A DNA stretch of 34,788 bases. Source: a virus (taxonomy: Duplodnaviria > Heunggongvirae > Uroviricota > Caudoviricetes). The translations under genes and the position numbers were made by a program. The stretch's first letter is position 1. Every line of letters starts with the position of its first letter. The notes beneath the pieces are model-generated. The model made no database searches. It was not told where the DNA came from and was given only the letters and a program-made list of their open reading frames with translations. Location: IMG/VR virus record IMGVR_UViG_2897352509_000006, one strand, 5' to 3'. Below are positions 1 to 31,293 of the stretch, in pieces.

Positions 1-1143
1 CTATGCTGTTTTGATATCTACGATAATCCAGTCTTTACCACGATCATCATTGTATCGGTCGGTCATTTTTCTGGATTTATGACCTAACAACTTTTGCGTA
101 TCCAGACCCTGTTCCCGATATAACCGTTCTGACAGAGATCGCTGCTCATGAAATGTGGGCGCAGTTCCTTGCTCCCATTTTATGCCACATTTTTCCCTGG
201 CCTTTTTAAAAGCCGTTGTAAGAGTATTTGCAGACACCTGGTCTCCTCTGTTTGCTTGAGAGGTAGTGTGACGGTAATGGACCAGATATTTACTAACAAC
301 AGCATCCCTGCACTGAGATATAACTTCACGAAGGGTAATATTCAGAGCATCGCATTTCAGGTTAAGCGGAATAGCAAGTTTTGAACCGGTTTTTTCCTGA
401 GTAATGTGCAACATGTCGTCCCAGATATCAGAGAATTTCAAATTGCAGATATCGCTTAAACGTTGTCCAGTGACAAGAGCAAGTAGCATCCCGCATTTTA
501 AATAGGGCTGCCGTCTGCTTACGCTGTCAAATATTGCCTGCCATTCGGGCAGTGATAATCTTTGACGGTTTACTCGATTTCGCGGTTGTTTTGTTGCCTG
601 CGCTGGGTTAAATCCTGGCGGAACATGTCCTGCGTGTTGTGCTTCTTTGAAGACGTCGATCAACACCATTCTCACGACTTGCGCCATCCTGTTATGACCT
701 TCAGCCTTTACAGCATCAATTATTTCGGCAATATCAAGTGCGGTAATATCCTTGAGGTGTTGCATTCCACAATGCTCACGGAAAAGACGGATGGGTTTGC
801 CTTTTTGCCGATAGGAGTTGGGTCTTAGTTCATTATGTTGCAGCCTGTCCTCCTGGATAGAATTATATTTATCAAGCCATTCTGTCACCGTAATGTCTGA
901 GCGCCTGCCTTTCATTCTTTCCAGACGCTCATTGACGCTTAATATTTGTCGGGTACGTTGTTCAGCAATAATGGTATTTGCTTCAGTAGCAACTTGTTTT
1001 GCTTCATTCTCATCAGTTCCTAAGCTATGAAAACGACCGGATAGTGGATGTTTGTATTGCCAATATACCTTTCCGGTTCGCTTATCTAATTTGCAATATA
1101 AATTGGGTATAGAGATTTTGTGAGATCGGGGGCTAGCAGCCAT
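1..1143 (-). CDS. int: Lambda-family tyrosine integrase (380 aa, complete; stop codon at window positions 1-3)
   Basis: N-terminal arm-binding-like region and C-terminal catalytic region with R (GQRLSD), H-x-x-R (HEQRSLSERLY) and Tyr (KMTDRYNDD) motifs; overall similarity to lambda Int but clearly a different specificity type. Confidence 0.9.
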   Translation of the reverse strand: MAASPRSHKISIPNLYCKLDKRTGKVYWQYKHPLSGRFHSLGTDENEAKQVATEANTIIAEQRTRQILSVNERLERMKGRRSDITVTEWLDKYNSIQEDRLQHNELRPNSYRQKGKPIRLFREHCGMQHLKDITALDIAEIIDAVKAEGHNRMAQVVRMVLIDVFKEAQHAGHVPPGFNPAQATKQPRNRVNRQRLSLPEWQAIFDSVSRRQPYLKCGMLLALVTGQRLSDICNLKFSDIWDDMLHITQEKTGSKLAIPLNLKCDALNITLREVISQCRDAVVSKYLVHYRHTTSQANRGDQVSANTLTTAFKKAREKCGIKWEQGTAPTFHEQRSLSERLYREQGLDTQKLLGHKSRKMTDRYNDDRGKDWIIVDIKTA

Positions 1144-1369
1144 CAGCGATTATCCGTTGGAGTTTTGGGTTTGCGTTTATTGGGAGTTGCGGTTCTGCAA
1201 GCGTTCCTACAAAACGGGAATTTCGGTCAATCATCCAGTAGCGACCAACTTTTATAGCGGGTGGGGCCATCATTTTCCCTTGCGCGTATTTTTTCAGAAC
1301 TCGCTCACTTGGTGCTAAGTCCCCAAATTCTTCTTTAGCCCAGTCCCGTAAAGTGATTAGTCGAGACAT
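1133..1369 (-). CDS. xis: Excisionase (Xis-like, 78 aa), overlapping the int start by 11 nt
   Basis: Pattern LxTLxxWA ... APPAIKVGRYW matches the lambda Xis winged-helix pattern (LTLQEW ... PPPVKDGREY); position immediately upstream of int on the same strand. Confidence 0.75.
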   Translation of the reverse strand: MSRLITLRDWAKEEFGDLAPSERVLKKYAQGKMMAPPAIKVGRYWMIDRNSRFVGTLAEPQLPINANPKLQRIIADGC

Positions 1370-1472
1370 TTGTCCTCCTCTTAGCTGCTGAGGGAGTTTG
1401 TGACCGATATATCTGACATGATATTAAGCTCATGGCAGGTACATCTCTTGACTGGTCATAGAGATAAATTTA

Positions 1473-2297
1473 ATGCTGAGAAATGCAGTATTGAATTTAT
1501 CAATTTTTCACCAGCTTCTGGTCTTTCTGGCTGTCATGCGCAAAACATATGGCTTTAATAAAAAACTGGATTGGGTTAGCAACGAGCAACTTTCCGAATT
1601 AACCGGGATATTGCCGCACAAGTGTTCTGCTGCAAAAAGTGTTCTGGTAAAGCGTGGGATTTTTATTCAGAGCGGGCGGAATACCGGCATTAATAATGTG
1701 GTCAGTGAATGGTCAACATTACCCGAATCAGGTAAGAAAAATAAAGTTTACCTGAAAGAGGTAAATTTACCTGAATCAGGTAAAAAAAGTTTACCCAAAT
1801 CAGGTAAAGGCGTTTACCCGAATCAGGTAAACACAAAAGACAAACTAACAAAAGACAATATAAAACCTTTTTCGTCCGAGAATTCTGGCGAATCCTCTGA
1901 CCAACCAGAAAACGATCTTCCTGTGGTGAAACCGGATGCTGCAATTCAGAGCGGCAGCAAGTGGGGGACAGCAGAAGACCTGACCGCCGCAGAGTGGATG
2001 TTTGACATGGTGAAGACCATCGCGCCATCAGCCAGAAAACCGAATTTTGCAGGGTGGGCTAACGATATCCGCCTGATGCGTGAACGTGACGGACGTAACC
2101 ACCGCGACATGTGCGTGCTGTTCCGCTGGGCATGCCAGGACAACTTCTGGTCCGGTAACGTGCTAAGTCCGGCCAAACTCCGCGACAAGTGGACCCAGCT
2201 CGAAATCAACCGTAACAAGCAACAGGCAGGCATGATAGCCAGCAAACCAAAACTCGACCTGACAAACACTGACTGGATTTACGGGGTGGATTTATGA
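1473..2297 (+). CDS. O: Replication initiator O; C-terminal half matches lambda O, N-terminal DNA-binding half is of a different specificity and possibly 5'-truncated
   Basis: C-terminal GWANDIRLMRERDGRNHRDMCVLFRWACQDNFWSGNVLSPAKLRDKWTQLEINRNK is lambda-O-like; iterons are embedded mid-gene as in lambda O; the ATG at 1473 has no clear Shine-Dalgarno, and the protein has fewer residues before the conserved LxxLRKTYG helix than lambda O. Confidence 0.85.
   Translation: MLRNAVLNLSIFHQLLVFLAVMRKTYGFNKKLDWVSNEQLSELTGILPHKCSAAKSVLVKRGIFIQSGRNTGINNVVSEWSTLPESGKKNKVYLKEVNLPESGKKSLPKSGKGVYPNQVNTKDKLTKDNIKPFSSENSGESSDQPENDLPVVKPDAAIQSGSKWGTAEDLTAAEWMFDMVKTIAPSARKPNFAGWANDIRLMRERDGRNHRDMCVLFRWACQDNFWSGNVLSPAKLRDKWTQLEINRNKQQAGMIASKPKLDLTNTDWIYGVDL
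1719..1875 (+). repeat. Replication origin: five ~17-bp palindromic iterons (1719-1735, 1748-1764, 1767-1783, 1791-1807, 1814-1830; consensus TTACCYGAAWSAGGTAA) followed by an AT-rich tract (1831-1875), inside the O coding sequence
   Basis: Directly visible repeats ttacccgaatcaggtaa / ttacctgaaagaggtaa / ttacctgaatcaggtaa / ttacccaaatcaggtaa / ttacccgaatcaggtaa, then acacaaaagacaaactaacaaaagacaatataaaacc; architecture matches ori-lambda (iterons plus AT-rich region within O). Confidence 0.85.
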
Positions 2298-2995
2298 AAA
2301 ACATCGCCGCACAGATGGTTAACTTTGACCGTGAGCAGATGCGTCGGATCGCCAACAACATGCCGGAACAGTACGACGAAAAGCCGCANTTACAGCAGGT
2401 AGNGCAGATCATNAACGGTGTNTTCAGCCAGTTACTGGCAACTTTCCCGGCGAGCCTGGCTAACCGTGACCAGAATGAACTGAACGAAATCCGCCGCCAG
2501 TGGGTTCTGGCTTTCCGGGAAAACGGGATCACCACAATGGAACAGGTTAACGCAGGAATGCGCGTAGCCCGTCGGCAGAATCGACCATTTCTGCCATCAC
2601 CCGGGCAGTTTGTTGCATGGTGCCGGGAAGAAGCATCCGTTATCGCCGGACTGCCAAACGTCAGCGAGCTGGTTGATATGGTTTACGANTATTNCCGGAA
2701 GCGTGGCCTNTATCCGGATNCAGAGTCTTATCCGTGGAAATCGAACGCGCATTACTGGTTGGTTACCAACTTGTACCAGAACATGCGGGCCAATGCGCTG
2801 GCTGACGCGGAATTACGGCGCAAGGCTGCCGATGAACTGACCTGTATGACAGCGCGAATTAACCGTGGTGAGACGATACCTGAACCAGTAAAACAACTTC
2901 CTGTTATGGGCGGTAGACCTCTAAATCGTGCACAGGCTCTGGCGAAGATCGCAGAAATTAAAGCTAAGTTCGGACTGAAAGGAGCAAGTGTATGA
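2294..2995 (+). CDS. P: Replication protein P (DnaB helicase loader), near-identical to lambda P; contains 8 ambiguous bases
   Basis: Translation MKNIAAQMVNFDREQMRRIANNMPEQYDEKP...KAKFGLKGASV matches lambda P along its length; N bases at 2389, 2403, 2413, 2422, 2689, 2694, 2710, 2720 produce X residues. Confidence 0.95.
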   Translation: MKNIAAQMVNFDREQMRRIANNMPEQYDEKPXLQQVXQIXNGXFSQLLATFPASLANRDQNELNEIRRQWVLAFRENGITTMEQVNAGMRVARRQNRPFLPSPGQFVAWCREEASVIAGLPNVSELVDMVYXYXRKRGXYPDXESYPWKSNAHYWLVTNLYQNMRANALADAELRRKAADELTCMTARINRGETIPEPVKQLPVMGGRPLNRAQALAKIAEIKAKFGLKGASV

Positions 2996-3294
2996 CGGGC
3001 AAAGAGGCAATTATTCATTACCTGGGGACGCATAAGAGCTTCTGTGCACAGGACGTTGCCGCGGTAACAGGTGCAACCGTAACCAGCATAAATCAGGCTG
3101 CGGCTAAAATGGCGCGGGCAGGAATCCTGGTCGTTGATGGTAAGGTCTGGCGAACGGTGTATTACCGGTTCGCTACCAGAGAAGAACGGGAAGGAAAGGT
3201 GAGCACGAATCTGATTTTTAAGGAGTGTCGCCAGAGTGCCGCGATGAAACGGGTATTGAGGGTATATAAAAGAACATCAANGGGAANACAATGA
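2992..3294 (+). CDS. ren: Ren protein (lambda ren homolog); 3' end uncertain because of ambiguous bases at 3282 and 3288
   Basis: MTGKEAIIHYLGTHKSFCAQDVAAVTGATVTSINQAAAKMARAGILVVDGKVWRTVYYRFATREEREGK matches lambda Ren; translationally coupled to P (overlapping ATGA). Confidence 0.85.
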   Translation: MTGKEAIIHYLGTHKSFCAQDVAAVTGATVTSINQAAAKMARAGILVVDGKVWRTVYYRFATREEREGKVSTNLIFKECRQSAAMKRVLRVYKRTSXGXQ

Positions 3295-3361
3295 TGAAAC
3301 AGGTGAGTTGAGTTCAAACTGTAGTACAATTCTCTCCAGTTTGAACAGGAAAGAATATGCT

Positions 3362-3694
3362 ATGAACCCTTATATTTATCTTGGTGGTGCAATACTTGCA
3401 GAGGTCATTGGTACAACCTTAATGAAGTTTTCAGAAGGTTTTACACGGTTATGGCCATCTGTTGGTACAATTATTTGTTATTGTGCATCATTCTGGTTAT
3501 TAGCTCAGACGCTGGCTTATATTCCTACAGGGATTGCTTATGCTATCTGGTCAGGAGTCGGTATTGTCCTGATTAGCTTACTGTCATGGGGATTTTTCGG
3601 CCAACGGCTGGACCTGCCAGCCATTATAGGCATGATGTTGATTTGTGCCGGTGTGTTGGTTATTAATTTATTGTCACGAAGCACACCACATTAA
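3362..3694 (+). CDS. emrE: Small multidrug resistance (SMR) efflux transporter EmrE, 110 aa
   Basis: MNPYIYLGGAILAEVIGTTLMKFSEGFTRLWPSVGTIICYCASFWLLAQTLAYIPTGIAYAIWSGVGIVLISLLSWGFFGQRLDLPAIIGMMLICAGVL is EmrE; ATG at 3362 preceded by aggaaag; the six-frame ORF from 3308 is an upstream extension. Confidence 0.95.
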   Translation: MNPYIYLGGAILAEVIGTTLMKFSEGFTRLWPSVGTIICYCASFWLLAQTLAYIPTGIAYAIWSGVGIVLISLLSWGFFGQRLDLPAIIGMMLICAGVLVINLLSRSTPH

Positions 3695-3938
3695 AAATAA
3701 TTTCTTTTAAAAGACTGCAATATGGCGGTTCATATCTTTACATGGGCCGCTTTTGTTAATGTTTTTAGTTTTTGTGTATTCTTTTGTGCCTTCAAGATTA
3801 TTGCGTAAGCAAATTGCAATACGATTATTGTTGTATATTCAAGATAGTGTGATCGTAATTGTCTTTTTAAATAAAAATTAAACAAAAATTATATCTCACC
3901 ACTAAGGTTTATAAAAGCATAAGTTAGCAGGTGTCACC

Positions 3939-5461
3939 ATGAAAAAAGCCATAGCATATATGCGATTTTCATCACCAGGTCAGATGTCTGGCGACTCATT
4001 AAACCGACAGAGAAGACTTATTGCTGAATGGTTAAAGGTAAATAGTGATTATTATCTTGATACCATAACATATGAAGATTTAGGATTAAGTGCATTCAAA
4101 GGAAAGCATGCACAATCAGGAGCTTTTTCGGAATTTTTAGATGCTATAGAGCATGGTTATATATTGCCAGGAACTACATTGTTAGTTGAAAGTCTGGACA
4201 GACTTTCAAGAGAAAAAGTCGGTGAAGCGATTGAACGTCTGAAATTGATTTTGAATCACGGTATTGATGTTATAACTCTTTGCGACAATACAGTCTATAA
4301 TATTGACTCTTTGAATGAGCCATATTCATTAATAAAAGCCATACTTATAGCACAAAGGGCAAATGAAGAAAGCGAGATAAAGTCAAGTCGGGTTAAATTA
4401 TCATGGAAGAAAAAACGGCAGGATGCACTGGAATCAGGTACGATTATGACGGCGTCTTGTCCGAGATGGCTCTCCTTAGATGACAAAAGAACGGCTTTTG
4501 TTCCAGACCCCGACAGGGTGAAAACTATTGAGCTAATTTTTAAACTCAGGATGGAAAGGCGCTCATTGAATGCAATAGCCAAGTATTTAAATGATCATGC
4601 TGTAAAGAATTTCTCAGGAAAAGAAAGTGCATGGGGGCCTTCTGTAATTGAAAAATTATTAGCGAATAAAGCTCTGATAGGTATATGCGTACCTTCATAT
4701 CGTGCAAGAGGGAAAGGGATAAGTGAAATCGCTGGCTATTATCCCAGAGTCATATCAGATGATTTGTTTTACGCTGTACAGGAAATTCGGTTGGCACCTT
4801 TTGGTATTAGCAATAGTAGCAAGAATCCTATGCTAATAAATCTACTTCGAACAGTTATGAAGTGTGAGGCTTGTGGTAATACCATGATTGTTCATGCGGT
4901 ATCTGGAAGTTTGCATGGCTATTATGTTTGTCCGATGAGAAGATTACATCGATGTGACAGGCCATCAATAAAGAGAGATTTGGTTGATTATAATATCATT
5001 AATGAATTTTTAATTGTAGCAAAATTCAACCAGTTGAAAACAAGAAAGATGCTAATGAAACTTTAGAGTTAAAAATTATTGAGCTTCAGATGAAAATTAA
5101 TAATTTAATCGTTGCATTGTCTGTCGCGCCTGAAGTTACCGCTATAGCAGAGAAAATAAGACTATTAGATAAGGAATTACGAAGAGCTTTGGTATCATTG
5201 AAAACTTTGAAGAGTAAAGGTGTAAATTCATTCAGTGATTTTTATGCTATTGACTTAACCAGTAAAAATGGACGAGAGTTATGCCGTACACTTGCCTATA
5301 AAATATTCGAAAAAATCATAATTAATACGGATAATAAAACCTGTGATATCTATTTTATGAATGGCATTGTTTTTAAACACTATCCTTTAATGAAAGTAAT
5401 ATCCGCCCAGCAGGCGATAAGTGCTCTCAAATATATGGTTGATGGTGAGGTTTATTTTTGA
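3939..5461 (+). pseudogene. ybcK: Large serine recombinase (DLP12 ybcK-like) split by a frameshift into a 375-aa piece (3939-5066) and a 123-aa piece (frame open from 5039, ATG at 5090, to 5461)
   Basis: N-terminus AIAYMRFSSPGQ carries the serine-recombinase catalytic Ser motif; the downstream ORF in another frame continues as a coiled-coil-like C-terminus; the frame switch falls beside an A-run at about 5037-5040 (ttgaaaacaagaaag). Could be a sequencing error. Confidence 0.7.
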
Positions 5462-5962
5462 GTAATAATCACTTTTTCAACCGTGCTATGGTATGAAAGT
5501 AAAGTAACTACTATGATATTAACTATCGAGCAAGAATATCCCCAGGCACTCAACAGGGCGCAGGTCAACGTGAATCGGTCATGACACGACACCGATTTTG
5601 CGGAATCAATGTTGCTTATGAATACAACATCCCGCTTAGTACATGTTCAACACATCAGCAAATTTTGAACTGGGTGTGGCACTTAACTGAAAAAACATGG
5701 ATGACACAAAATGTTACTCGTCGCTTCATTGAAGTAGCTTGTGGATATCACAAGCTAGACTATCGCCAATGATATTCAATTTTTGATTTTTTAGTATCAA
5801 CCTTCCATAATAATGTCACCGGAGCTTGAACAACTCCGGTGACTTCTGCGCATTTAAGGGGACTTAAATGCGACCACAATCTGAACTCCTTACCTTGTCA
5901 CAGATGCAGAAATGCACCTGCGATGTCTTGCATCCAGCGTTTGATCTCTGCGGAGGTGAAGC

Positions 5963-6418
5963 GTGAACCTCCCACAAGATGGCATCAAATTACATCGCGG
6001 TAACTTCACCGCTGTCGGTCAGCAGATCCAGACTTATCTGGAAGACGGCAAATGCTTTCGCATGGTGCTTAAACCGTGGCGCGAGAGACGCAGTCTTTCC
6101 CAGAATGCACTCAGCCACATGTGGTACAGCGAAATCAGTGAATACCTCATCAGCAGGGGGAAATCGTTCGCTACTTCAGCATGGGTAAAAGATGCTCTCA
6201 AACACACATACCTCGGTTATGAAACCAAGGACCTGGTTGATGTCGTAACCGGCGAAATCACTACTATCCAGTCGTTACGCCATACCTCCGATCTTGGTAC
6301 CGGAGAGATGTATGTCTTCCTGTGTAAGGTTGAAGCCTGGGCGATGAATATTGGCTGCCACCTGACTATTCCACAGAGCTGCGAGTTCCAGCTGCTGCGT
6401 GACAAGCAGGAGGCGTAA
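5963..6418 (+). CDS. ninB: NinB-family recombination protein (DLP12 ybcN-like), GTG start
   Basis: 151-aa product with an RSLSQN motif resembling lambda NinB RSLDQN; GGAGG at 5952-5956 six nt upstream of GTG 5963; sits at the head of a nin-like gene run. Confidence 0.7.
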
Positions 6419-6588
6419 TGGCTACACCGCTTATTCGTGTCATGAACGGACACATCTACAAAGTACCAAATCGTCGTAAGCGTAAACCTGAGCTGAAGCC
6501 ATCCGAAATACCAACACTGCTCGGATATACCGCCAGCCTGGTTGATAAAAAATGGTTGCGACTGGCAGCAAGGAGGAATCATGGCTGA
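6418..6588 (+). CDS. ninE: NinE-like small protein (56 aa)
   Basis: Hand translation [56 protein letters not shown], start overlapping the ninB stop (TAATG); matches DLP12 NinE from memory; absent from the ORF track (under 60 aa). Confidence 0.7.
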   Translation: MATPLIRVMNGHIYKVPNRRKRKPELKPSEIPTLLGYTASLVDKKWLRLAARRNHG

Positions 6589-6871
6589 TTTGAGAAAAGC
6601 AGCGCGTAGTCGGGAATGCCAAGTAAGAATCCCTGGCGTATGTAATGGCAACCCTGAAACGTCTGTACTGGCACATATCCGGCTGACTGGATTGTGCGGC
6701 ACCGGTACCAAACCGCCAGACTTGATTGCCACCATTGCATGTTCTGCCTGCCACGACGAAATCGACCGCCGCACACATTTTGTCGATGCTGCATATGCAA
6801 AAGAATGCGCGCTGGAAGGTATGGCGAGAACACAGGTTATCTGGCTGAAAGAGGGGGTTATTAAGGCGTGA
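6581..6871 (+). CDS. ybcO: YbcO-like Cys-rich protein (DUF1364 family, putative nuclease), 96 aa
   Basis: [64 protein letters not shown] matches DLP12 YbcO; ATG at 6581 preceded by aggagg. Confidence 0.85.
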
Positions 6872-7230
6872 ATACCTACAGCATCACATTACCCTGGCCT
6901 CCGAGCAATAATCGCTACTACCGGCATAATCGCGGGCGCACGCACATCAGCGCAGAAGGGCAGGCATACCGTGATAACGTCGCCCGAATCATCAAAGGCT
7001 CCATGCTGGATATCGGCCTGGCTATGCCAGTGAAAATCCGTATTGAGTGCCACATGCCGGATCGCCGTCGCCGTGACCTGGATAATCTGCAAAAAGCCGC
7101 TTTTGAGGCACTCACCAAAGCAGGTTTCTGGCTGGATGATGCTCAGGTCGTTGATTACCGTGTTGTGAAGATGCCCGTTACCAAAGGTGGGAAGCTGGAG
7201 CTGACCATCACCGAACTGGGGAATGAATGA
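6868..7230 (+). CDS. rusA: Holliday junction resolvase RusA
   Basis: [79 protein letters not shown]...[15 protein letters not shown] is RusA. Confidence 0.95.
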
Positions 7231-7367
7231 TGTTTGAGTCTTATATGGCAGAACGTCTTCGCCACCGCTGGATGCGCCTGCGCTTATATCGTTTTCCTGG
7301 TTCTGTTTTGACCGATTACCGGATACTGAAGAATTACGCCAAAACACTGAAAGGAGCTGCCGCATGA
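7227..7367 (+). CDS. ylcG: Small protein YlcG-like (46 aa), translationally coupled between rusA and Q
   Basis: Hand translation [46 protein letters not shown]; start overlaps the rusA stop and its stop overlaps the Q start. Confidence 0.5.
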
Positions 7368-8053
7368 ATACCCAATATTTACAGTATGTCCGCGAGCAAC
7401 TCATTGTGGCTACCGCTGATTTGAGCGGAGCAACGAAAGGACAGCTTGAAGCCTGGCTGGAGCATGCACAATTTGATACTGGTACATACAAACGAAAGAA
7501 GCCGCGCATTCTGGATGAGGTAACTGGCAGGATGATTACGCTGGATAATCCGCCGATTTCCGGTAAGCAGTCGTACGCAAAAGGTTCATCCATTGCACTG
7601 GTCAGCCAGGTTGAGTTCTCAACCTCGTCATGGCGCCGCGCGGTTCTGTCTCTCGAAGAACATCAGAAAGCGTGGTTGCTGTGGAGTTACAGCGAAAGTG
7701 TTCGCTGGGAACATCAGGTCACCATAACGCAGTGGGCATGGAGCGAGTTTAAGACTCTGTTGGGTACCAGGAAAATTGCAGGTAAGACACTGGAACGTTT
7801 GAAGAAGTTGATCTGGCTGGCGGCACAGGATGTGAAGAACGAGCTGGCAGGGCGTAAGACCTATGAATACCAGGAGCTGGCATCACTGGTGGGAGTGACA
7901 TCAAAAAACTGGTCTGAGACATTTACTGAACGCTGGGTTGCAATGAAACACATTTTTCTACAGCTTGATAGCCAAGCTTTATTGCTTTTAACGAAAACAC
8001 GTTCAAAACAAAAGACCACATTTTCACAGCAAGATATTGCAAAACTGGATTAA
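7364..8053 (+). CDS. Late-gene antiterminator Q-like protein (229 aa; not the lambda Q sequence type)
   Basis: Position immediately upstream of a terminator-containing leader and the lysis cassette, downstream of the nin genes; the sequence resembles Q-family antiterminators of other E. coli prophages as I recall them (not verified by search). Confidence 0.65.
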   Translation: MNTQYLQYVREQLIVATADLSGATKGQLEAWLEHAQFDTGTYKRKKPRILDEVTGRMITLDNPPISGKQSYAKGSSIALVSQVEFSTSSWRRAVLSLEEHQKAWLLWSYSESVRWEHQVTITQWAWSEFKTLLGTRKIAGKTLERLKKLIWLAAQDVKNELAGRKTYEYQELASLVGVTSKNWSETFTERWVAMKHIFLQLDSQALLLLTKTRSKQKTTFSQQDIAKLD

Positions 8054-8121
8054 AAATCATATATTTTATGTAAATCTGATATTTTGCCAATGTTGTACGC
8101 ACTGGCAGTAATCCAAATTCA

Positions 8122-8157
8122 AGCCCGAGGTTTAAAGCCTTGGGCTTTTCTGTTTCT
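8122..8157 (+). terminator. Intrinsic terminator-like hairpin (agcccgagg / tttaaag / ccttgggct + ttttctgtttctg); candidate tR'-type terminator of the late leader
   Basis: 9-bp stem with one G-U pair followed by a T-rich run, in the leader between Q and the holin. Confidence 0.5.
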
Positions 8158-8234
8158 GAACGGTGAGTAGCCTTCCAACCTACCCCAGCCAGGGGGTCTT
8201 CAGCTGTTGAGTTGATATTGCTTAGCCCTCTGTT

Positions 8235-8260
8235 GCCAGCTACATGCTGGCTTTTTTATT
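8235..8260 (+). terminator. Intrinsic terminator-like hairpin (gccagc / tacat / gctggc + ttttttatt) just upstream of the lysis genes
   Basis: Perfect 6-bp GC-rich stem with a 5-nt loop and a run of six T. Confidence 0.55.
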
Positions 8261-8374
8261 CCAGGCTTGTGGGGAGCATCAACTCCGTGCTTTGTCGTTA
8301 AATTACCCCGTGAGCCATCAACATATCATTTCACGCTCCGATTTTCTGTCGGAGGCGAAACTGCGGCTATTCAT

Positions 8375-8680
8375 ATGCACGAAAAAGAGAATCTTGCTGG
8401 AGCGTTCTGGCTTGTTTTGCTGATCATCGCAGGTTGGGGGGGGCTTGTCCGTTACCTGATTGATGTGAAGCAGAGTAAAGCAACGTGGAGCTGGATAAAT
8501 GCCCTCGCTCAGATAGTTGTATCAGGATTCACCGGTGTTATTGGTGGCCTAATCAGTATCGAAAGTGGATTCAGTATTTACATGATTCTCGCAACTGCGG
8601 GGATTAGTGGTGCGATGGGTTCGGTTGCACTGACGTACTTCTGGGAACGGCTGACAGGGGTGAAAAATGCAAAATCTTAA
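8375..8680 (+). CDS. Putative holin with three predicted transmembrane segments (not the lambda S or phage 21 S sequence type)
   Basis: Three hydrophobic stretches (AFWLVLLIIAGWGGLV, INALAQIVVSGFTGVIGGLI, IYMILATAGISGAMGSVAL) and a charged C-terminus; stop overlaps the R start; start ATG chosen at 8375 (MHEKEN), though the ORF is open from 8267. Confidence 0.6.
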   Translation: MHEKENLAGAFWLVLLIIAGWGGLVRYLIDVKQSKATWSWINALAQIVVSGFTGVIGGLISIESGFSIYMILATAGISGAMGSVALTYFWERLTGVKNAKS

Positions 8681-9143
8681 TCCTCAGCGTAAAGCTTTCC
8701 TCGATATGGTGGCCTGGTCAGAAGGAACGGATAATGGGCTACAACCGACACGTAATCATGGTTATGACGTTATTGTCGGTGGAGAACTCTTCACTGATTA
8801 CTCCGATCACCCTCGCAAACTTGTCACGCTAAACCCGAAACTCAAATCAACAGCTGCAGGCCGTTATCAACTTCTTTCACGCTGGTGGGATGCTTACCGC
8901 AAGCAGCTTGGGCTGAAAGACTTCTCTCCAAAAAGCCAGGATGCTGTGGCATTGCAGCAGATTAAAGAGCGTGGCGCTTTACCGATGATTGATCGCGGCG
9001 ATATTCGTCAGGCTATCGATCGTTGCAGCAATATCTGGGCTTCACTGCCGGGCGCTGGTTACGGTCAGTATGAACATAAAATCGGTGACCTGATTGCCCG
9101 ATTTAAAGAGGCTGGTGGGGTGGTAAATGAGAGTGAGGTATGA
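8667..9143 (+). CDS. R: Endolysin R (lytic transglycosylase), lambda R-like
   Basis: [18 protein letters not shown]...[105 protein letters not shown] is near-identical to lambda R. Confidence 0.95.
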
Positions 9144-9604
9144 GCAGAATAACCGCGATTATCTCCGCTCTGCTTATCTGCATCATCGTCTGCCTGTCAT
9201 GGGCTGTTAATCATTACCGTGATAACGCCATTACCTACAAAGCCCAGCGCGACAAAAATGCCAGAGAACTGAAGCTGGCGAACGCGGCAATTACTGACAT
9301 GCAGATGCGTCAGCGTGATGTTGCTGCGCTCGATGCAAAATACACGAAGGAGTTAGCTGATGCGAAAGCTGAAAATGATGCTCTGCGTGATGATGTTGCC
9401 GCTGGTCGTCGTCGGTTGCACATCAAAGCAGTCTGTCAGTCAGTGCGTGAAGCCACCACCGCCTCCGGCGTGGATAATGCAGCCTCCCCCCGACTGGCAG
9501 ACACCGCTGAACGGGATTATTTCACCCTCCGGGAACGACTGGTAATGATGCAGGCCCAACTTGAAGGTGCTCAGCAATACATAACCGAGCAGTGTTTAAA
9601 GTAA
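9140..9604 (+). CDS. Rz: Inner-membrane spanin Rz
   Basis: [80 protein letters not shown]... matches lambda Rz. Confidence 0.95.
9360..9545 (+). CDS. Rz1: Outer-membrane lipoprotein spanin Rz1, embedded in the +1 frame of Rz
   Basis: [52 protein letters not shown], with a lipobox (VVGC) and Pro-rich tract as in lambda Rz1. Confidence 0.9.
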
Positions 9605-9632
9605 TGCCCATATCGATGGGCAGCTCATGCAA

Positions 9633-9926
9633 TTATTGTGAGCAATACACACGCGCTTCCAGCGGAGTATAAATGCCTAAAGTAATAAAACCGAGCAATC
9701 CATTTACGAATGTTTGCTGGGTTTCTGTTTTAACAACATTTTCTGCGCCGCCACAAATTTTAGCTGCATCGACAGTTTTCTTCTGCCCAATTCCAGAGAC
9801 GAAGAAATGGTGGGTGATGGTTTCCTTTGGTGTTACTGCTGCCGGTTTGTTTTGAACAGTAAACGTCTGTTGGGCACATCCTGTAATAAGCAGGGCCAGC
9901 GCAGTAGCGAGTAGCATTTTTTTCAT
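9633..9926 (-). CDS. bor: Bor lipoprotein (serum-resistance-associated outer membrane lipoprotein)
   Basis: MKKMLLATALALLITGCAQQTFTVQNKPAAVTPKETITHHFFVSGIGQKKTVDAAKICGGAENVVKTETQQTFVNGLLGFITLGIYTPLEARVYCSQ matches lambda Bor; lipobox LITGC. Confidence 0.95.
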   Translation of the reverse strand: MKKMLLATALALLITGCAQQTFTVQNKPAAVTPKETITHHFFVSGIGQKKTVDAAKICGGAENVVKTETQQTFVNGLLGFITLGIYTPLEARVYCSQ

Positions 9927-10219
9927 GGTGTTATTCCCGATGCTTTTTAAAGTTCGCAGAATCGTATGTGTAGAAAATTAAACAAACCCTAAACAATGAG
10001 TTGAAATCTCATATTGTTAATATTTATTAATGTATGTCAGATGCGAAGGATCGTCACTGTATTCCCGGATTAACTATGTCCGCAGCCCTGACAGGGAAAC
10101 TCCTCTGCGGGAGTGTCCGGGAATAATTAATAACGATGCACACAGGGTTTAGCGCGTACACGTTTTTTATTAAACCAATGCAGTCCGGCTCAGGAGTGAG
10201 AGAAGCCGGACGTTATGGT

Positions 10220-10630
10220 TTAGCGTGGTAAGATCTGTGTAGTTTTCTGGATGCTTTCAGTAAATAGTAATGAATTATCAAAGGTATAGTAATATCTTTT
10301 TTGTTCGTGGATATTTGTAACCCACCGAAAAACTCCTGCTTTAGCAAGGTTTCTTCTGTATTCCTGAAATGTGATCTCTCTGGATTTCAGCTTATTAGAG
10401 GTCGTTTCTATAAGATGCCTATCCTTTGAAAATTTGACAGACACAATGTTTTTTAGGCCCTTTAATAACACTGTATTATCATTTTTTAATACAATATGAA
10501 CATTCTCTGTGGCTAAATAGTAAATGTAATGTGAGACATTGTGACGTTTTAGCTCAGAATAAAACCATTGATAGTTTAAATCGTTTCGAACTTTATCAAA
10601 TATTTGTTTAAAAATGACTACCTGATCCAT
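10220..10630 (-). CDS. ybcV: YbcV-like protein of unknown function (DUF1398 family)
   Basis: [59 protein letters not shown]... matches DLP12 YbcV from memory; start chosen at the second ATG (10630), which has a GAAGG Shine-Dalgarno; the ORF is open to 10645; visibly AT-rich. Confidence 0.75.
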
Positions 10631-10914
10631 AGATAAACCTTCCATGTGATATGAGGGGGCGTAGTCTGCACGATTATCTAAATTGCTTCAATCTGGTCTG
10701 ACCTGTTTTTGTTTTGTTGATGATTTATGTCAAATATTAGGAATGTTTTCAATTAATAGTATTGGTTGCGTAACAAAGTGCGGTCCTGCTGGCATTCTGG
10801 AGGGAAATACAACCGACAGATGTATGTAAGGCCAACGTGCTCAAATCTTCATACAGAAAGATTTGAAGTAATATTTTAACCGCTAGATGAAGAGCAAGCG
10901 CATGGAGCGACAAA

Positions 10915-11121
10915 ATGAATAAAGAACAATCTGCTGATGATCCCTCCGTGGATCTGATTCGTGTAAAAAATATGCTTAATAGCACCATTTCTATGAGTTA
11001 CCCTGATGTTGTAATTGCATGTATAGAACATAAGGTGTCTCTGGAAGCATTCAGGGCAATTGAGGCAGCGTTGGTGAAGCACGATAATAATATGAAGGAT
11101 TATTCCCTGGTGGTTGACTGA
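10915..11121 (+). CDS. ybcW: YbcW-like small protein of unknown function (68 aa)
   Basis: [68 protein letters not shown]; divergent from ybcV; GGAG upstream of the ATG. Confidence 0.65.
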
Positions 11122-11285
11122 TCACCATAACTGCTAATCATTCAAACTACTTAACCTGTGACAGAGCCAACACGCAGTCTGTCACTGTCAGGAAAGTGGT
11201 AAAACTGCAACTCAATTACTGCAATGCCCTCGTAATTAAGTGAATTTACAATATCGTCCTGTTCGGAGGGAAGAACGCAGTAATG

Positions 11286-11480
11286 TCACTCTTTTCTTTG
11301 TTTTGCTTCAGAAGAAACTCTTTTTTCTGAGCACAGTCTCCGGCGGCAGGCTTCAATGACCCAGGCTGAGAAATTCCCGGACCCTTTTTGCTCAAGAGCG
11401 ATGTTAATTTGTTCAATCATTTGGTTAGGAAAGCGGATGTTGCGGGTTGTTGTTCTGCGGGTTCTGTTCTTCGTTGACAT
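11286..11480 (-). CDS. ylcI: YlcI-like small basic protein (DUF3950-type; possible ribbon-helix-helix-like DNA binder)
   Basis: MSTKNRTRRTTTRNIRFPNQMIEQINIALEQKGSGNFSAWVIEACRRRLCSEKR; basic N-terminus followed by a pattern resembling Arc/MetJ-type RHH proteins (inference only). Confidence 0.55.
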   Translation of the reverse strand: MSTKNRTRRTTTRNIRFPNQMIEQINIALEQKGSGNFSAWVIEACRRRLCSEKRVSSEAKQRKE

Positions 11481-11649
11481 GAGGTTGCCCCGTATTCAGT
11501 GTCGCTGATTTGTATTGTCTGAAGTTGTTTTTACGTTAAGTTGATGCAGATCAATTAATACGATACCTGCGTCATAATTGATTATTTGACGTGGTTTGAT
11601 GGCCTCCACGCACGTTGTGATATGTAGATGATAATCATTATCACTTTAC

Positions 11650-11870
11650 GGGTCCTTTCCGGTGATCCGACAGGTTACGGGGCGGCGACCTCGCGGGTTT
11701 TCGCTATTTATGAAAATTTTCCGGTTTAAGGTGTTTCCGTTCTTCTTCGTCGTAACTTAATGTTTTTATTTAAAATACCCCCTGAAAAGAAAGGAAACGA
11801 CAGGTGCTGAAAGCGAGCTTTTTGGCCTCTGTCGTTTCCTTTCTCTGTTTTTGTCCGTGGAATGAGCAAT
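11650..11870 (+). other. cos: Lambda-type cos site: cosQ, cosN (12-nt cohesive end GGGCGGCGACCT at 11680-11691) and cosB, immediately upstream of Nu1
   Basis: Sequence ...cgggtcctttccggtgatccgacaggttacg | gggcggcgacctcgcgggttttcgctatttatgaaaattttccggtttaagg... matches the lambda right end joined to the lambda left end as I recall them. Confidence 0.9.
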
Positions 11871-12387
11871 GGAAGTCAACAAAAAGCAGCTGGCTGACAT
11901 TTTCGGTGCGAGTATCCGTACCATTCAGAACTGGCAGGAACAGGGAATGCCCGTTCTGCGAGGCGGTGGCAAGGGTAATGAGGTGCTTTATGACTCTGCC
12001 GCCGTTATAAAATGGTATGCCGAAAGGGATGCTGAAATTGAGAACGAAAAGCTGCGCCGGGAGGTTGAAGAACTGCGGCAGGCCAGCGAGGCAGATCTCC
12101 AGCCAGGGACTATGAGTACGAACGCCATCGACTTACGCGTGCGCAGGCCGACGCACAGGAACTGAAGAATGCCAGAGACTCCGCTGAAGTGGTGGAAACC
12201 GCATTCTGTACTTTCGTGTTGTCGCGGATCGCAGGTGAAATTGCCAGTATTCTCGACGGGATTCCCCTGTCGGTGCAGCGGCGTTTTCCGGAACTGGAAA
12301 ACCGACATGTTGATTTCCTGAAACGGGATATCATCAAAGCCATGAACAAAGCAGCCGCGCTGGATGAACTGATACCGGGGTTGCTGA

Positions 12388-12413
<26 letters not shown>
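11869..12413 (+). pseudogene. nu1: Terminase small subunit Nu1, disrupted by an apparent 1-bp deletion near 12110-12114
   Basis: ORF 11869-12165 encodes the Nu1 N-terminus (MEVNKKQLADIFGASIRTIQNWQEQGMPVLRGGGKGNEVLYDSAAVIKWYAERDAEIENEKLRREVEELRQASEADLQPGT) then runs out of frame; ORF 12189-12413 in another frame encodes the Nu1 C-terminus (VVETAFCTFVLSRIAGEIASILDGIPLSVQRRFPELENRHVDFLKRDIIKAMNKAAALDELIPGLLSEYIEQSG). Confidence 0.8.
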
Positions 12414-16094
<3,681 letters not shown>

Positions 16095-17811: not shown

Positions 17812-18837
17812 ATGTCGATATACACAACCGCCCAGCTGCTGGCGGCAAATGAGCAGAAATTTAAGTTTGATCCGCTGTTTCTGCGTCTCTTTTTCCGTGA
17901 GAGCTATCCCTTCACCACGGAGAAAGTCTATCTCTCACAAATTCCGGGACTGGTATGCATGGCGCTGTACGTTTCGCCGATTGTTTCTGGTGAGGTTATC
18001 CGTTCCCGTGGCGGCTCCACCTCTGAATTTACGCCGGGATATGTCAAGCCGAAGCATGAAGTGAATCCGCAGATGACCCTGCGTCGCCTGCCGGATGAAG
18101 ATCCGCAGAATCTGGCGGACCCGGCTTACCGCCGCCGTCGCATCATCATGCAGAACATGCGTGACGAAGAGCTGGCCATTGCTCAGGTCGAAGAGATGCA
18201 GGCAGTTTCTGCCGTGCTCAAGGGCAAATACACCATGACCGGTGAAGCCTTCGATCCGGTTGAGGTGGATATGGGCCGCAGTGCGGCGAACAACATCACG
18301 CAGTCCGGCGGCACGGAGTGGAGCAAGCGTGACAAGTCCACGTATGACCCGACCGACGATATCGAAGCCTACGCGCTGAACGCCAGCGGCGTGGTGAATA
18401 TCATCGTGTTTGACCCGAAAGGCTGGGCGCTGTTCCGTTCCTTCAAAGCCGTCAGGGAGAAGCTGGATACCCGTCGCGGCTCTCATTCCGAACTGGAGAC
18501 AGCGGTAAAAGACCTGGGCAAAGCGGTGTCTTATAAGGGAATGTATGGCGATGTGGCCATCGTCGTGTATTCCGGACAGTACGTGGAAAACGGCGTCAAA
18601 AAGAACTTCCTGCCGGACAACACGATGGTGCTGGGGAACACTCAGGCCAAATTCCGGGACTGGTATGGCTGTATTCAGGATGCGGATGCATTGAGTGAGG
18701 GTATTAATGCGTCTCCCCGTTATCCGAAAAACTGGAAGACATCCGGCGATCCGGCGCGAGAGTTCACCATGATTCAGTCAGCACCGCTGATGCTGCTGGC
18801 TGATCCTGATGAGTTCGTGGCCGTTCAACTGGCGTAA
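17812..18837 (+). CDS. E: Major capsid protein E (341 aa)
   Basis: MSIYTTAQLLAANEQKFKFDPLFLRLFFRESYPFTTEKVYLSQIPGLV... matches lambda gpE; start at ATG 17812, not the upstream ORF extension. Confidence 0.97.
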   Translation: MSIYTTAQLLAANEQKFKFDPLFLRLFFRESYPFTTEKVYLSQIPGLVCMALYVSPIVSGEVIRSRGGSTSEFTPGYVKPKHEVNPQMTLRRLPDEDPQNLADPAYRRRRIIMQNMRDEELAIAQVEEMQAVSAVLKGKYTMTGEAFDPVEVDMGRSAANNITQSGGTEWSKRDKSTYDPTDDIEAYALNASGVVNIIVFDPKGWALFRSFKAVREKLDTRRGSHSELETAVKDLGKAVSYKGMYGDVAIVVYSGQYVENGVKKNFLPDNTMVLGNTQAKFRDWYGCIQDADALSEGINASPRYPKNWKTSGDPAREFTMIQSAPLMLLADPDEFVAVQLA

Positions 18838-18839
18838 TC

Positions 18840-18866
18840 ATGGCCCTTCGGGGCCATTTTCTCTCT
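18840..18866 (+). terminator. Hairpin (atggccc / ttcg / gggccat) followed by a T/C-rich run between E and FI
   Basis: Perfect 7-bp stem with a tetraloop directly after the E stop codon. Confidence 0.4.
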
Positions 18867-18878
18867 GTGGAGGAGTCC

Positions 18879-19277
18879 ATGACGAAAGATGAACTGATTG
18901 CCCGTCTCCGCTCGCTGGGTGAACAACTGAACCGTGATGTCAGCCTGACGGGGACGAAAGAAGAACTGGCGCTCCGTGTGGCAGAGCTGGAAGAGGAGCT
19001 TGATGACACGGATGAAACTGCCGGTCAGGACACCCCTCTCAGCCGGGAAAATGCGCTGACCGGACATGAAAATGAGGTGGGATCAGCGCAGCCGGATACC
19101 GTGATTCTGGATACGTCTGAACTGGTCACGGTCGTGGCACTGGTGAAGCTGCATACTGATGCACTTCACGCCACGCGGGATGAACCTGTGGCATTTGTGC
19201 TGCCGGGAACGGCGTTTCGTGTCTCTGCCGGTGTGGCAGCCGAAATGACAGAGCGCGGCCTGGCCAGAATGCAATAA
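18879..19277 (+). CDS. FI: DNA-packaging protein FI (132 aa)
   Basis: MTKDELIARLRSLGEQLNRDVSLTGTKEELALRVAELEEELDDTDETAGQDTPLSREN... matches lambda gpFI. Confidence 0.95.
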   Translation: MTKDELIARLRSLGEQLNRDVSLTGTKEELALRVAELEEELDDTDETAGQDTPLSRENALTGHENEVGSAQPDTVILDTSELVTVVALVKLHTDALHATRDEPVAFVLPGTAFRVSAGVAAEMTERGLARMQ

Positions 19278-19288
19278 CGGGAGGCGCT

Positions 19289-19642
19289 GTGGCTGATTTC
19301 GATAACCTGTTCGATGCTGCCATTGCCCGCGCCGATGAAACGATACGCGGGTACATGGGAACGTCAGCCACCATGACATCCGGTGAGCAGTCAGGTGCGG
19401 TGATACGTGGTGTTTTTGATGACCCTGAAAATATCAGCTATGCCGGACAGGGCGTGCGCGTTGAAGGCTCCAGCCCGTCCCTGTTTGTCCGGACTGATGA
19501 GGTGCGGCAGCTGCGGCGTGGAGACACGCTGACCATCGGTGAGGAAAATTTCTGGGTAGATCGGGTTTCGCCGGATGATGGCGGAAGTTGTCATCTCTGG
19601 CTTGGACGGGGCGTACCGCCTGCCGTTAACCGTCGCCGCTGA
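19289..19642 (+). CDS. FII: Head-tail connector protein FII (117 aa)
   Basis: MADFDNLFDAAIARADETIRGYMGTSATMTSGEQSGAVIRGVFDDPENISYAGQGVRVEGSSPSLFVRTDEVRQLRRGDTLTIGEENFWVDRVSPDDGGSCHLWLGRGVPPAVNRRR matches lambda gpFII. Confidence 0.95.
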   Translation: MADFDNLFDAAIARADETIRGYMGTSATMTSGEQSGAVIRGVFDDPENISYAGQGVRVEGSSPSLFVRTDEVRQLRRGDTLTIGEENFWVDRVSPDDGGSCHLWLGRGVPPAVNRRR

Positions 19643-19653
19643 AAGGGGGATGT

Positions 19654-20232
19654 ATGGCCATAAAAGGTCTTGAGCAGGCCGTTGAAAACCTCAGCCGTAT
19701 CAGCAAAACGGCGGTGCCCGGTGCCGCCGCAATGGCCATTAACCGCGTTGCTTCATCCGCGATATCGCAGTCGGCGTCACAGGTTGCCCGTGAGACAAGA
19801 GTACGCCGGAAACTGGTAAAGGAAAGGGCCAGGCTGAAAAGGGCCACGGTTAAAAATCCGCAGGCCAGAATCAAGGTTAACCGGGGGGATTTGCCCGTAA
19901 TCAAGCTGGGTAACGCGCGGGTTGTCCTGTCCCGACGCAGGCGTCGTAAAAAGGGGCAGCGTTCATCCCTGAAAGGTGGCGGCAGCGTGCTTGTGGTGGG
20001 AAACCGTCGTATTCCCGGCGCGTTTATTCAGCAACTGAAAAATGGCCGGTGGCATGTCATGCAGCGTGTGGCCGGGAAAAACCGTTACCCCATTGATGTG
20101 GTGAAAATCCCGATGGCGGTGCCGCTGACCACGGCGTTTAAACAGAATATTGAGCGGATACGGCGTGAACGTCTTCCGAAAGAGCTGGGCTATGCGCTGC
20201 AGCATCAACTGAGAATGGTAATAAAGCGATGA
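19654..20232 (+). CDS. Z: Tail completion protein Z (192 aa)
   Basis: Length, position and sequence match lambda gpZ. Confidence 0.95.
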   Translation: MAIKGLEQAVENLSRISKTAVPGAAAMAINRVASSAISQSASQVARETRVRRKLVKERARLKRATVKNPQARIKVNRGDLPVIKLGNARVVLSRRRRRKKGQRSSLKGGGSVLVVGNRRIPGAFIQQLKNGRWHVMQRVAGKNRYPIDVVKIPMAVPLTTAFKQNIERIRRERLPKELGYALQHQLRMVIKR

Positions 20233-30635: not shown

Positions 30636-31235
30636 ATGCGTAAACTTTATGCCGCCATTTTGTCCGCAGCCATTTGTCTGGCCGTATCCGGTGCGCCTGC
30701 ATGGGCATCTGAACATCAGTCCACGCTGAGCGCGGGGTATCTTCATGCCCGGACCAACGTTCCCGGCAGTGATGATCTGAACGGGATTAACGTGAAATAC
30801 CGTTATGAGTTTACGGATACGCTGGGGCTGGTGACGTCATTCAGCTATGCAGGAGACAAGAATCGCCAGCTGACCCGTTACAGCGATACCCGCTGGCATG
30901 AAGATTCCGTGCGTAACCGCTGGTTCAGCGTGATGGCGGGGCCGTCTGTGCGCGTGAATGAATGGTTCAGCGCGTATGCGATGGCGGGTATGGCTTACAG
31001 CCGTGTTTCGACTTTTTCCGGGGATTACCTTCGCGTAACTGACAACAAGGGGAAAACGCACGATGTGCTGACCGGAAGTGATGACGGTCGCCACAGCAAC
31101 ACGTCTCTGGCGTGGGGGGCTGGCGTGCAGTTTAACCCGACCGAATCCGTGGCCATTGATATTGCTTATGAAGGTTCTGGCAGTGGTGACTGGCGCACTG
31201 ACGGGTTCATCGTGGGTGTTGGTTATAAATTCTGA
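30636..31235 (+). CDS. lom: Lom outer membrane protein (Ail/Lom family beta-barrel)
   Basis: MRKLYAAILSAAICLAVSGAPAWASEHQSTLSAGYLHARTNVPGSDDLNGINVKYRYEFTDTLGLVTSFSYAGDKNRQLTRY...VGVGYKF matches lambda Lom; signal peptide and C-terminal aromatic residue. Confidence 0.95.
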   Translation: MRKLYAAILSAAICLAVSGAPAWASEHQSTLSAGYLHARTNVPGSDDLNGINVKYRYEFTDTLGLVTSFSYAGDKNRQLTRYSDTRWHEDSVRNRWFSVMAGPSVRVNEWFSAYAMAGMAYSRVSTFSGDYLRVTDNKGKTHDVLTGSDDGRHSNTSLAWGAGVQFNPTESVAIDIAYEGSGSGDWRTDGFIVGVGYKF

Positions 31236-31262
31236 TTAGCCAGGTAACACAGTGTTATGACA

Positions 31263-31290
31263 GCCCGCCGGTTCAGGCGGGCTTTTTTGT
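31263..31290 (+). terminator. Intrinsic terminator after lom (agcccgcc / ggttca / ggcgggct + ttttt)
   Basis: Perfect 8-bp GC-rich stem plus T-run. Confidence 0.7.
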
Positions 31291-31293
31291 GGG

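Follow-up and report, generated by a model that had tools for sequence, protein, structure and literature searches.

In a lambdoid prophage, int and xis should be separated from the replication gene O by the early left and immunity genes, and the left end of the DNA analyzed here (IMG/VR record IMGVR_UViG_2897352509_000006, 34,788 bp in all; the window) raises the question of how xis came to lie directly against O, P, and ren. An earlier note had proposed that the whole intervening region is missing; the coordinates that it gave are correct, as is the juxtaposition of xis with O-P-ren, although the 8–10 kb that it expected between xis and O is an overestimate, as the closest intact relatives have only ∼6–6.6 kb there. 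A single illegitimate internal deletion of ∼6.0 kb in the phage 21/λ-like icd prophage Sp8 is very probably the cause of this arrangement.

By its sequence, the window is prophage Sp8 of the Escherichia coli O157:H7 lineage, a phage 21/λ-like element integrated at icd. Its first 3 kb are 99.6% identical to the region labeled “prophage Sp8” in the Sakai record, where icd lies immediately upstream, and the two have a common gene order (ECs_1609–ECs_1663). Over positions 1–2388, identity is 100% with both Sakai and resequenced EDL933. All differences from Sakai in the first 3 kb lie at 2389 or beyond, many of them being the window's own N's, and the 19 mismatches and one gap in the first 6 kb all lie there too. 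Away from the junction region, several dense patches of divergence set the window apart from Sakai Sp8, and from 8.3 kb onward they are present in comparison with resequenced EDL933 as well; these patches and the 11 ambiguous bases indicate that parts of the window are of doubtful quality.

The left side of the locus is an undamaged phage 21 type module. The integrase gene (1–1143, minus strand; Pfam Arm-DNA-bind_1 and Phage_integrase) encodes a full-length tyrosine integrase of 380 amino acids that is identical at 374 positions to that of phage 21 and at 377 to that of the AVS0171 prophage, and xis (1133–1369, minus strand; Pfam Exc) encodes a full-length protein of 78 amino acids with 77 identities to each; both lengths equal those in phage 21 (98–99% identity), and neither gene has internal stops. 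Upstream of xis lies a 140 bp spacer (1370–1509) that BLAST and alignment show to be native to phage 21-type phages (140/140 identical to AVS0171, L004 4855–4994, and 139/140 to phage 21) and that continues unbroken as far as the first base of the neighboring DUF4222 stop codon, the rest of the DUF4222 gene being deleted. The 103 bp of noncoding DNA previously noticed between xis and O (1370–1472) were measured correctly, but they are only part of this intact spacer. Every BLAST match to the left side stops at 1509; ungapped, positions 1–1509 are 98.7% identical to phage 21 and 98.9% to the AVS0171 icd prophage.

From 1509 onward the window aligns instead with the O genes of PhiR34_1 and AVS0171, and a three-way alignment together with BLAST breakpoints places the deletion junction at 1509/1510, where C1509 is common to both parental sequences (a 1-nt microhomology) and A1510 is the first unambiguous O base. 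In ∼2,400 genomes with just one of the two halves, the BLAST breakpoint falls at the identical base. The junction is thus 37 nt inside the annotated O reading frame rather than upstream of it, which narrows the earlier placement of the endpoint “in or just before” O to O itself; ATG 1473 lies in native spacer sequence and is not O's own start. Strain AVS0171 carries an intact icd prophage with the same int-xis and O type, and exactly 6,006 bp of it, comprising 13 genes and 77 O codons, are absent from the window. Lambdoid phages are mosaics and the ancestral Sp8 is unavailable, so the content of the deleted segment is inferred from this relative (96.9% identical in O-P, counting the window's N's) rather than observed.

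The absence of the early left and immunity genes, as proposed earlier, was borne out by tblastn searches of the window with cI, cro, cII, N, cIII, ea10, ral, exo, bet, gam, kil, and small early left proteins from three intact relatives, none of which gave a match better than E = 0.01; three repressor types and their cro partners were among the queries without a match. The Sakai annotation has no repressor across the whole of Sp8, and with both cI and cro absent the prophage cannot be repressor-controlled, as had been surmised. The elements that control int and xis (pL with N, and the cII-dependent pI) should be gone as well, their flanking genes and the cII-like gene lying within the missing 6 kb. 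A repeat search found no direct repeats or insertion sequence remnants flanking the junction, so a deletion mediated by an insertion sequence or by homology is unsupported. Rfam and tRNA scans found nothing at or near the junction.

What remains of O is a 5′-truncated gene (1509–2297, plus strand, as defined by Pfam, alignments, and RefSeq) within the annotated open reading frame (1473–2297, plus strand), which matches Pfam Phage_rep_O and has a product of 274 amino acids. In the 339-codon annotation its beginning falls at codon 78, equivalent to residue 48 of the λ/21-type O protein (299 amino acids in the λ type). The 47 native N-terminal residues (λ-type numbering) are replaced by twelve foreign, spacer-derived codons, MLRNAVLNLSIF (1473–1508, plus strand), which protein and DNA alignments and a frame check show to share O's frame by coincidence; the in-frame stop before them is TGA 1449–1451. 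The N-terminus is indeed shorter than that of λ O, as had been noted: the Phage_rep_O (PF04492) match covers positions 28–95 of 95, compared with 1–95 or 2–95 in intact relatives, and the N-terminal origin-binding domain is therefore incomplete, profile positions 1–27 being absent. Every full-length homolog aligned has the conserved motif RVADLDDGYTRIANELLEA, which the window's O does not; the only other aligned homolog without the conserved N-terminal motif is P0006, a gene call on an 854-bp contig, and just one protein cluster contains the N-terminus MLRNAVLNLSIF. In RefSeq the EDL933 gene is marked as a pseudogene, “missing N-terminus”, that starts exactly at the junction base, and most genome annotations call the reading frame “replication protein”. 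The C-terminal half, which in λ O is the part that interacts with P, is invariant in comparison with the O proteins of phage 21 and PhiR34_1 except at P150, M254, and I255.

In an AlphaFold model of an intact O homolog, a helix at residues 22–42 falls in the lost part, whereas the canonical winged-helix core (residues 47–108) is retained; the N-terminal domain has pLDDT values of ∼70–83, and the lost helix is modeled with moderate confidence. A PDB sequence search with intact O found no solved relative, and a Foldseek comparison of the model with the PDB gave winged-helix matches (MarR, CRP) of which the best had E = 0.025 and none reached 0.001; with matches this weak, the idea that the lost helix might be a MarR-like dimerization helix stays a suggestion. 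The origin-binding domain of λ O reportedly spans residues 19–139. The work that defines this domain, Struble et al. 2007, is cited in PMC3349717, and PMC7466680 gives no domain information. We infer that the truncated O of the window is nonfunctional.

The features downstream of the truncation are better preserved. A repeat finder identified an intact replication origin within O (1719–1862), with five 17-bp palindromic iterons, TTACCYGAATCAGGTAA, at 1719–1835 followed by an A+T-rich stretch; its position matches that of the annotated ori and gpO sites within phage 21 O. A λ-type P gene (2294–2995, plus strand; Pfam Phage_lambda_P, E = 9e-59) follows, in whose region the window has 8 ambiguous bases, and then ren (2992–3294, plus strand), which is annotated “protein ren” or “exclusion protein” in matching genomes.

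Little is left that might drive transcription of these genes. At about 1463–1501 (plus strand) a terminator-like scan, the repeat finder, and RNA folding (z = –2.8) agree on a 16-bp A+T-rich inverted repeat followed by AATTTTTC, a terminator-like hairpin that contains ATG 1473. It was not made by the deletion but is native to the spacer, with the same sequence in phage 21 and AVS0171. A promoter scan, which was a simple consensus search that weak or alternative-sigma promoters could escape, found no σ70-like site on the plus strand between 1100 and 3670 and no promoter-like site on either strand around the junction; the hexamer TTGACT at 1448–1453, remarked upon earlier, has no acceptable –10 partner, and a weak 9/12 match within xis on the minus strand is the only promoter-like site left. 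It had been suggested that O, P, and the late genes would depend on read-in or fortuitous promoters. The premise holds, in that no promoter is seen before O-P-ren, but read-in from the icd side appears unlikely because pattern matching places a strong terminator-like hairpin downstream of icd and the 16-bp hairpin with its T-run directly over the fusion start.

Could the junction be an error of assembly? The 11 ambiguous bases and the divergence from 8.3 kb onward might raise that suspicion, but the probability that the window was misjoined here is close to nil, since 1–2388 agrees perfectly with Sakai and resequenced EDL933 and the junction 40-mer is present in 295 of 5,426 complete E. coli genomes, which were assembled independently. 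All serotyped carriers in a sample of 60 are O157. A check of 50,697 phage records and 185,579 species-representative genomes (GTDB) found no copy of the 40-mer, and no intact relative with xis beside an O of the same N-terminus appeared in these three collections; the 40-mer is also a clean marker of the O157:H7 lineage. In O55:H7 CB9615 the icd site is empty, and an Sp8-related phage with 96% identity is reported in the STEC O55:H7 strain 122262 (PMC5708253).

A natural, functional gene order with a short O variant that starts at ATG 1473 might also be considered, as the frame is open, the usual annotation is “replication protein”, and the winged-helix core and entire C-terminal domain are kept. 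This is very improbable, however, because the first 37 nt of the frame are spacer that lies beside DUF4222 in thousands of genomes and is unrelated to O, P0006 alone among the aligned homologs shares the loss of the N-terminal motif, the new N-terminus is confined to its one cluster, no phage record has the junction, and Sp8 does not replicate. It is somewhat less far-fetched, though still improbable, that illegitimate recombination joined two separate elements here, for example an int-xis remnant at icd with either another lambdoid prophage or a phage that was infecting the cell. The mosaicism of lambdoid phages and the many lambdoid prophages that reside together in O157 genomes would favor this, as would the affinities of the two halves: the left is closest to phage 21-type phages, and the right (O-P-ren-emrE-ybcK) is closest to DLP12-like or PhiR34_1-like elements (97.7% over 4 kb). 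However, AVS0171 already combines at icd an int-xis region 98.9% identical to that of the window with the same O type, so there is no need to invoke a second parent; either origin would in any case lead to the same product with the same consequences.

With a single internal deletion as the preferred explanation, the history of the locus may be reconstructed as follows. The deletion would have run from the stop codon of DUF4222, the first gene beyond xis, to O codon 78 (λ residue 48), removing small early left genes, exo, bet, gam, kil, an S24-type repressor gene, a cro-like gene, a cII/YdaT-like gene, and the 5′ end of O. Judged by their position between the lost genes, pL, pR, the operators, and the N/nut functions should have gone with them. 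Expression of int and xis is normally driven by pL and by the cII activator. By analogy with λ, int and xis would now be without both, and pR and N would be lost to O-P-ren and thereby also to Q and the late genes. In the present O reading frame, 12 spacer codons would have been joined by chance to an O that is short of the conserved N-terminal helix; the start codon is enclosed in a hairpin with no recognizable promoter before it, and the surviving ori iterons would have neither a cognate intact O nor activating transcription from pR. The expected outcome is a transcriptionally orphaned prophage that neither excises nor replicates and is inherited vertically, which fits the published failure of Sp8 to circularize, replicate, or be packaged.

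In that study (Asadulghani et al. 2009, PLoS Pathog 5:e1000408; PMC2669165), Sp8 was described as having no CI, Cro, or general recombination functions, and experiments on its circularization, replication, and packaging were all negative; after mitomycin C treatment most genes of the prophages other than Sp1, Sp5, Sp13, and Sp15 showed no significant transcriptional response. Sp8 was nevertheless scored “Replication +”, with O and P “apparently functional”; it was predicted to be excisable with intact replication genes, yet was observed to be inert. Where that account has replication conserved, we find O truncated at its 5′ end and fused to spacer codons. A 6,006-bp deletion that removed all promoters and regulators behind int-xis and O-P and also decapitated O would explain the mismatch between prediction and observation. 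The defect of Sp8 (no CI or Cro, and inert) and the “missing N-terminus” of the EDL933 O were already known, and the only refinement of the literature, as read from the DNA, is that O is truncated. This has little consequence beyond bookkeeping, though the annotation of ECs_1611 and its equivalents should be corrected from an intact O gene to a pseudogene fusion.

It is conceivable, though a long shot, that the iterons, the intact P, and the truncated O, with its winged-helix core and P-interacting C-terminus still in place, act as a decoy or dominant-negative element that hinders the replication of lambdoid phages which superinfect the host and share its replication type; if so, this would help explain why a deleted prophage is fixed across O157:H7. 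The analogy is with λ, where plasmid-borne replication regions are reported to block plating of rep-λ phages (PMC3349717) and ectopic ori copies to arrest λ proliferation (PMC4488673).

Sp8 has a parallel in DLP12, the cryptic prophage of E. coli K-12, which also lost its immunity region by an internal deletion from the int-xis side to the replication/nin side and with which it has the block ren-emrE-ybcK-ybcN-ninE-ybcO-rusA-ylcG-Q in common. The DLP12 deletion is an independent event in a prophage that lies at argU and has a different integrase; with one endpoint within exo (exoD′) and the other within P (peaD′), it took out O and ori entirely, and the DLP12 xis is a pseudogene, whereas in Sp8 xis, ori, the whole of P, and most of O survive. 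The AVS0171 icd prophage and phage 21 resemble Sp8 in attachment site, int, xis, and spacer (and AVS0171 also in O type), but unlike Sp8 both retain a 6–6.6 kb early left/immunity region and a full-length O. Sp3 is the other lambdoid prophage of Sakai reported to be without CI and Cro; according to the same paper it also has no replication genes, and its integrase is disrupted (PMC2669165).

The element is prophage Sp8 of E. coli O157:H7 itself. The first 3 kb of the window align end to end, at 99.6% identity, with sequence in 296 complete E. coli genomes, and the counterpart in O157:H7 strain Sakai, labeled "prophage Sp8; lambda-like phage", lies directly downstream of icd. Positions 1–2388 are identical to Sakai and to resequenced EDL933 (also O157:H7), and the sequences first differ at bases that are ambiguous in the window itself; there are 11 such bases (at 2389–2720, 3281–3287, and 34022; mostly in P and ren), and the window therefore derives from an older or lower-quality assembly. 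The ORFs and coordinates that an earlier note, made from the sequence alone, had assigned to int (1–1143, minus strand), xis (1133–1369, minus strand), O (1473–2297, plus strand; a Phage_rep_O match), P (2294–2995), and ren (2992–3294) are all confirmed. An emrE-type SMR transporter gene (3308–3694) and a ybcK-like recombinase gene (3939–5066) follow ren, as in DLP12, a cryptic prophage of E. coli K-12. Relative to Sp8 of Sakai and resequenced EDL933, the window is near-identical except for dense substitutions and small indels at 8317–13736, 18647–19728, 30872–31440, and 33873–34343, which suggest either exchange with other lambdoid prophages in the same host or a chimeric assembly in which repeated prophage sequence was mixed. 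At 5006, four bp (TTGC) of both references are missing, which leaves the ybcK-like serine recombinase with 375 rather than 508 amino acids; this may reflect either an error in sequencing the window or variation between strains. The tail-fibre assembly region contains an Rfam IS009 (RF02111) match at 34556–34754 (226.6 bits; gathering score 117).

When window 1100–1900 was compared by BLAST with 50,697 phage records and 5,426 complete E. coli genomes, thousands of records matched only the left part, always stopping at 1509, and thousands of others matched only the right part, always beginning at 1509; no record among the 50,697 phages covers both halves. A three-way alignment shows a phage-21-type spacer ending in AATTTATCAATTTTTC fused to O interior sequence beginning ACCAGCTTCTGG, with one C common to both parents at the junction. 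This puts the break 37 nt into the ORF annotated as O. Positions 1370–1509 are the native spacer between xis and its neighboring DUF4222 gene (140/140 identical to AVS0171, a strain with an intact prophage at icd), and the last of these bases is the first base of the DUF4222 stop codon. The spacer also supplies the ATG at 1473 and the 11 codons after it (MLRNAVLNLSIF), which are in frame with O by chance. The earlier note had placed a deletion endpoint in or just before O; the deletion is upheld, but its junction moves to this position within the ORF.

The AVS0171 int-xis region is 98.9% identical to that of the window and its O is of the same type; compared with it, the window lacks exactly 6,006 bp (4995–11000 of the AVS0171 sequence, L004). 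The missing segment carries DUF4222, ASCH, TraR-like, orf61, DUF1382, and DUF1317 genes, exo, bet, gam, and kil, an S24-peptidase repressor, a cro-like regulator, a YdaT/cII-like gene, and the first 77 O codons as annotated. In phage 21, whose regulatory map is fully annotated, the matching interval contains pL, OL, nutL, N, cI, OR, cro, nutR, tR1, and cII. The 8–10 kb between xis and O previously expected from λ is too large for these relatives, in which it is about 5.9–6.6 kb.

Intact O homologs match positions 1–95 of the Pfam Phage_rep_O profile, and the Sp8 ORF matches only 28–95. A protein search found 1,761 homologs; when 23 of these were aligned, the conserved N-terminal motif RVADLDDGYTRIANELLEA was present in every full-length member and missing from Sp8; the MLRNAVLNLSIF start is limited to one protein cluster. 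An AlphaFold model of an intact 309-amino acid homolog (mean pLDDT 59, about 70–83 across residues 31–115) predicts a helix at 22–42 followed by a winged-helix unit (helices 47–60, 72–79, and 83–95; strands 99–102 and 105–108). Sp8 O begins at residue 48, so that it would lose the whole first helix, while the winged-helix core and all of the C-terminal domain would remain. The PDB matches found by Foldseek, all of them winged-helix proteins, are weak and suggestive only, and a sequence search found no solved structure of an O relative; loss of Sp8 O function is thus inferred. The origin (1719–1862), with five palindromic iterons and an A+T-rich stretch, is intact. RefSeq, as it now annotates resequenced EDL933, already lists the O gene as a pseudogene ("incomplete; missing N-terminus") whose start coincides exactly with window position 1509.

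A naturally short O is ruled out, since the first 37 nt are unrelated spacer, the family-wide N-terminal motif is missing, and the junction is in no phage record. An assembly artefact is likewise excluded by the presence of the junction 40-mer in 295 of the 5,426 complete genomes. A repeat search found no IS remnant or direct repeat flanking the junction, leaving an IS- or homology-mediated deletion unsupported; with 1 nt of microhomology, the event was an illegitimate recombination. Lambdoid phages are mosaic, and two different elements might have recombined instead of one prophage suffering an internal deletion, but AVS0171 makes a second element unnecessary and the outcome would be unchanged, so we consider this very improbable.

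Every serotyped genome among 60 sampled rows of junction carriers is O157; the 40-mer is also present in four IMG/VR contigs and in none of 185,579 species-representative genomes. By this distribution, the junction is stable, passes on vertically, and marks the O157:H7 lineage. The 295 genomes hold 297 copies, so one or two have more than one, and one O157 strain (NZ_AP026099.1) has an IS1203-family insertion within the first 3-kb region. In O55:H7 strain CB9615 the icd site is empty (icd is followed by iraM); an Sp8-related prophage is reported in an STEC O55:H7 strain (PMC5708253). CB9615 also has a small satellite-like element between roxA and phoQ (L013 44753–49001 plus L014 1–6192, both CB9615 sequences) that encodes an integrase, an Icd-like protein, a RepA-family helicase, capsid and decoration proteins, and a small terminase.

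The absence of a repressor, cro, or N from the window, as first read from its ORFs, holds in tblastn searches with cI, cro, cII, N, cIII, ea10, ral, exo, bet, gam, kil, and small early-left proteins of phage 21, PhiR34_1 (another intact relative), and an intact icd prophage, which found no homolog in the window better than E = 0.01; the Sakai annotation lists no repressor in the whole 44-kb prophage. Just past the right end of Sp8, outside both the annotated prophage and the window, Sakai ECs_1664 (L005, the Sakai sequence, 44619–44768) is weakly similar (E = 2e-4) to the helix-turn-helix N-terminal part of the AVS0171 and PhiR34_1 repressors; it may be part of another remnant at the same site.

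In λ, pL with N drives xis and int, int is also expressed from the cII-dependent pI, and pR with N drives O, P, and Q. All of these elements would fall within the lost interval, which would orphan both divergent gene sets. The TTGACT at 1448–1453 had been noted to have no good −10 partner, and a simple sigma-70 scan agrees, finding no promoter-like site in 1100–3670 on the plus strand or in 1100–3824 on the minus strand; a single weak (9/12) promoter-like site is seen on the minus strand, within xis. The start codon of the fusion is buried in a 16-bp A+T-rich hairpin (1463–1501) followed by AATTTTTC, by pattern match a terminator-like feature belonging to the native spacer, and a G+C-rich terminator-like hairpin lies 3′ of icd; read-in from the left would need to cross both. 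Phage 21 and many icd prophages share this inverted repeat and T-run (1463–1509) in the spacer upstream of xis; the feature is terminator-like on the plus strand and faces the leftward early operon, and the phage 21 record annotates no native role for it. Sp8 was predicted to be excisable, with replication scored as conserved, and yet it gave no circular form, amplification, or packaged DNA (Asadulghani et al. 2009, PMC2669165), and outside Sp1, Sp5, Sp13, and Sp15 most prophage genes showed no significant response to mitomycin C (PMC2669165). Orphaned gene sets fit these results, and the mapped junction would explain why Sp8 neither excises nor replicates despite the published prediction.

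The original observation is thus confirmed, and its interpretation is supported with a corrected junction. Loss of the immunity region in Sp8 is already known, and this analysis adds only the junction to the exact base, the 6,006-bp length of the missing segment, and the recognition that O as annotated is truncated and fused. Among independent cases DLP12 is the nearest parallel; it shares the ren-emrE-ybcK...Q block with Sp8 and has also lost its immunity region. DLP12 and PhiR34_1 carry ybcL-ybcM between ybcK and ybcN, whereas Sp8 lacks both genes, and the DLP12 deletion differs in running from inside exo to inside P, in a prophage at another attachment site.
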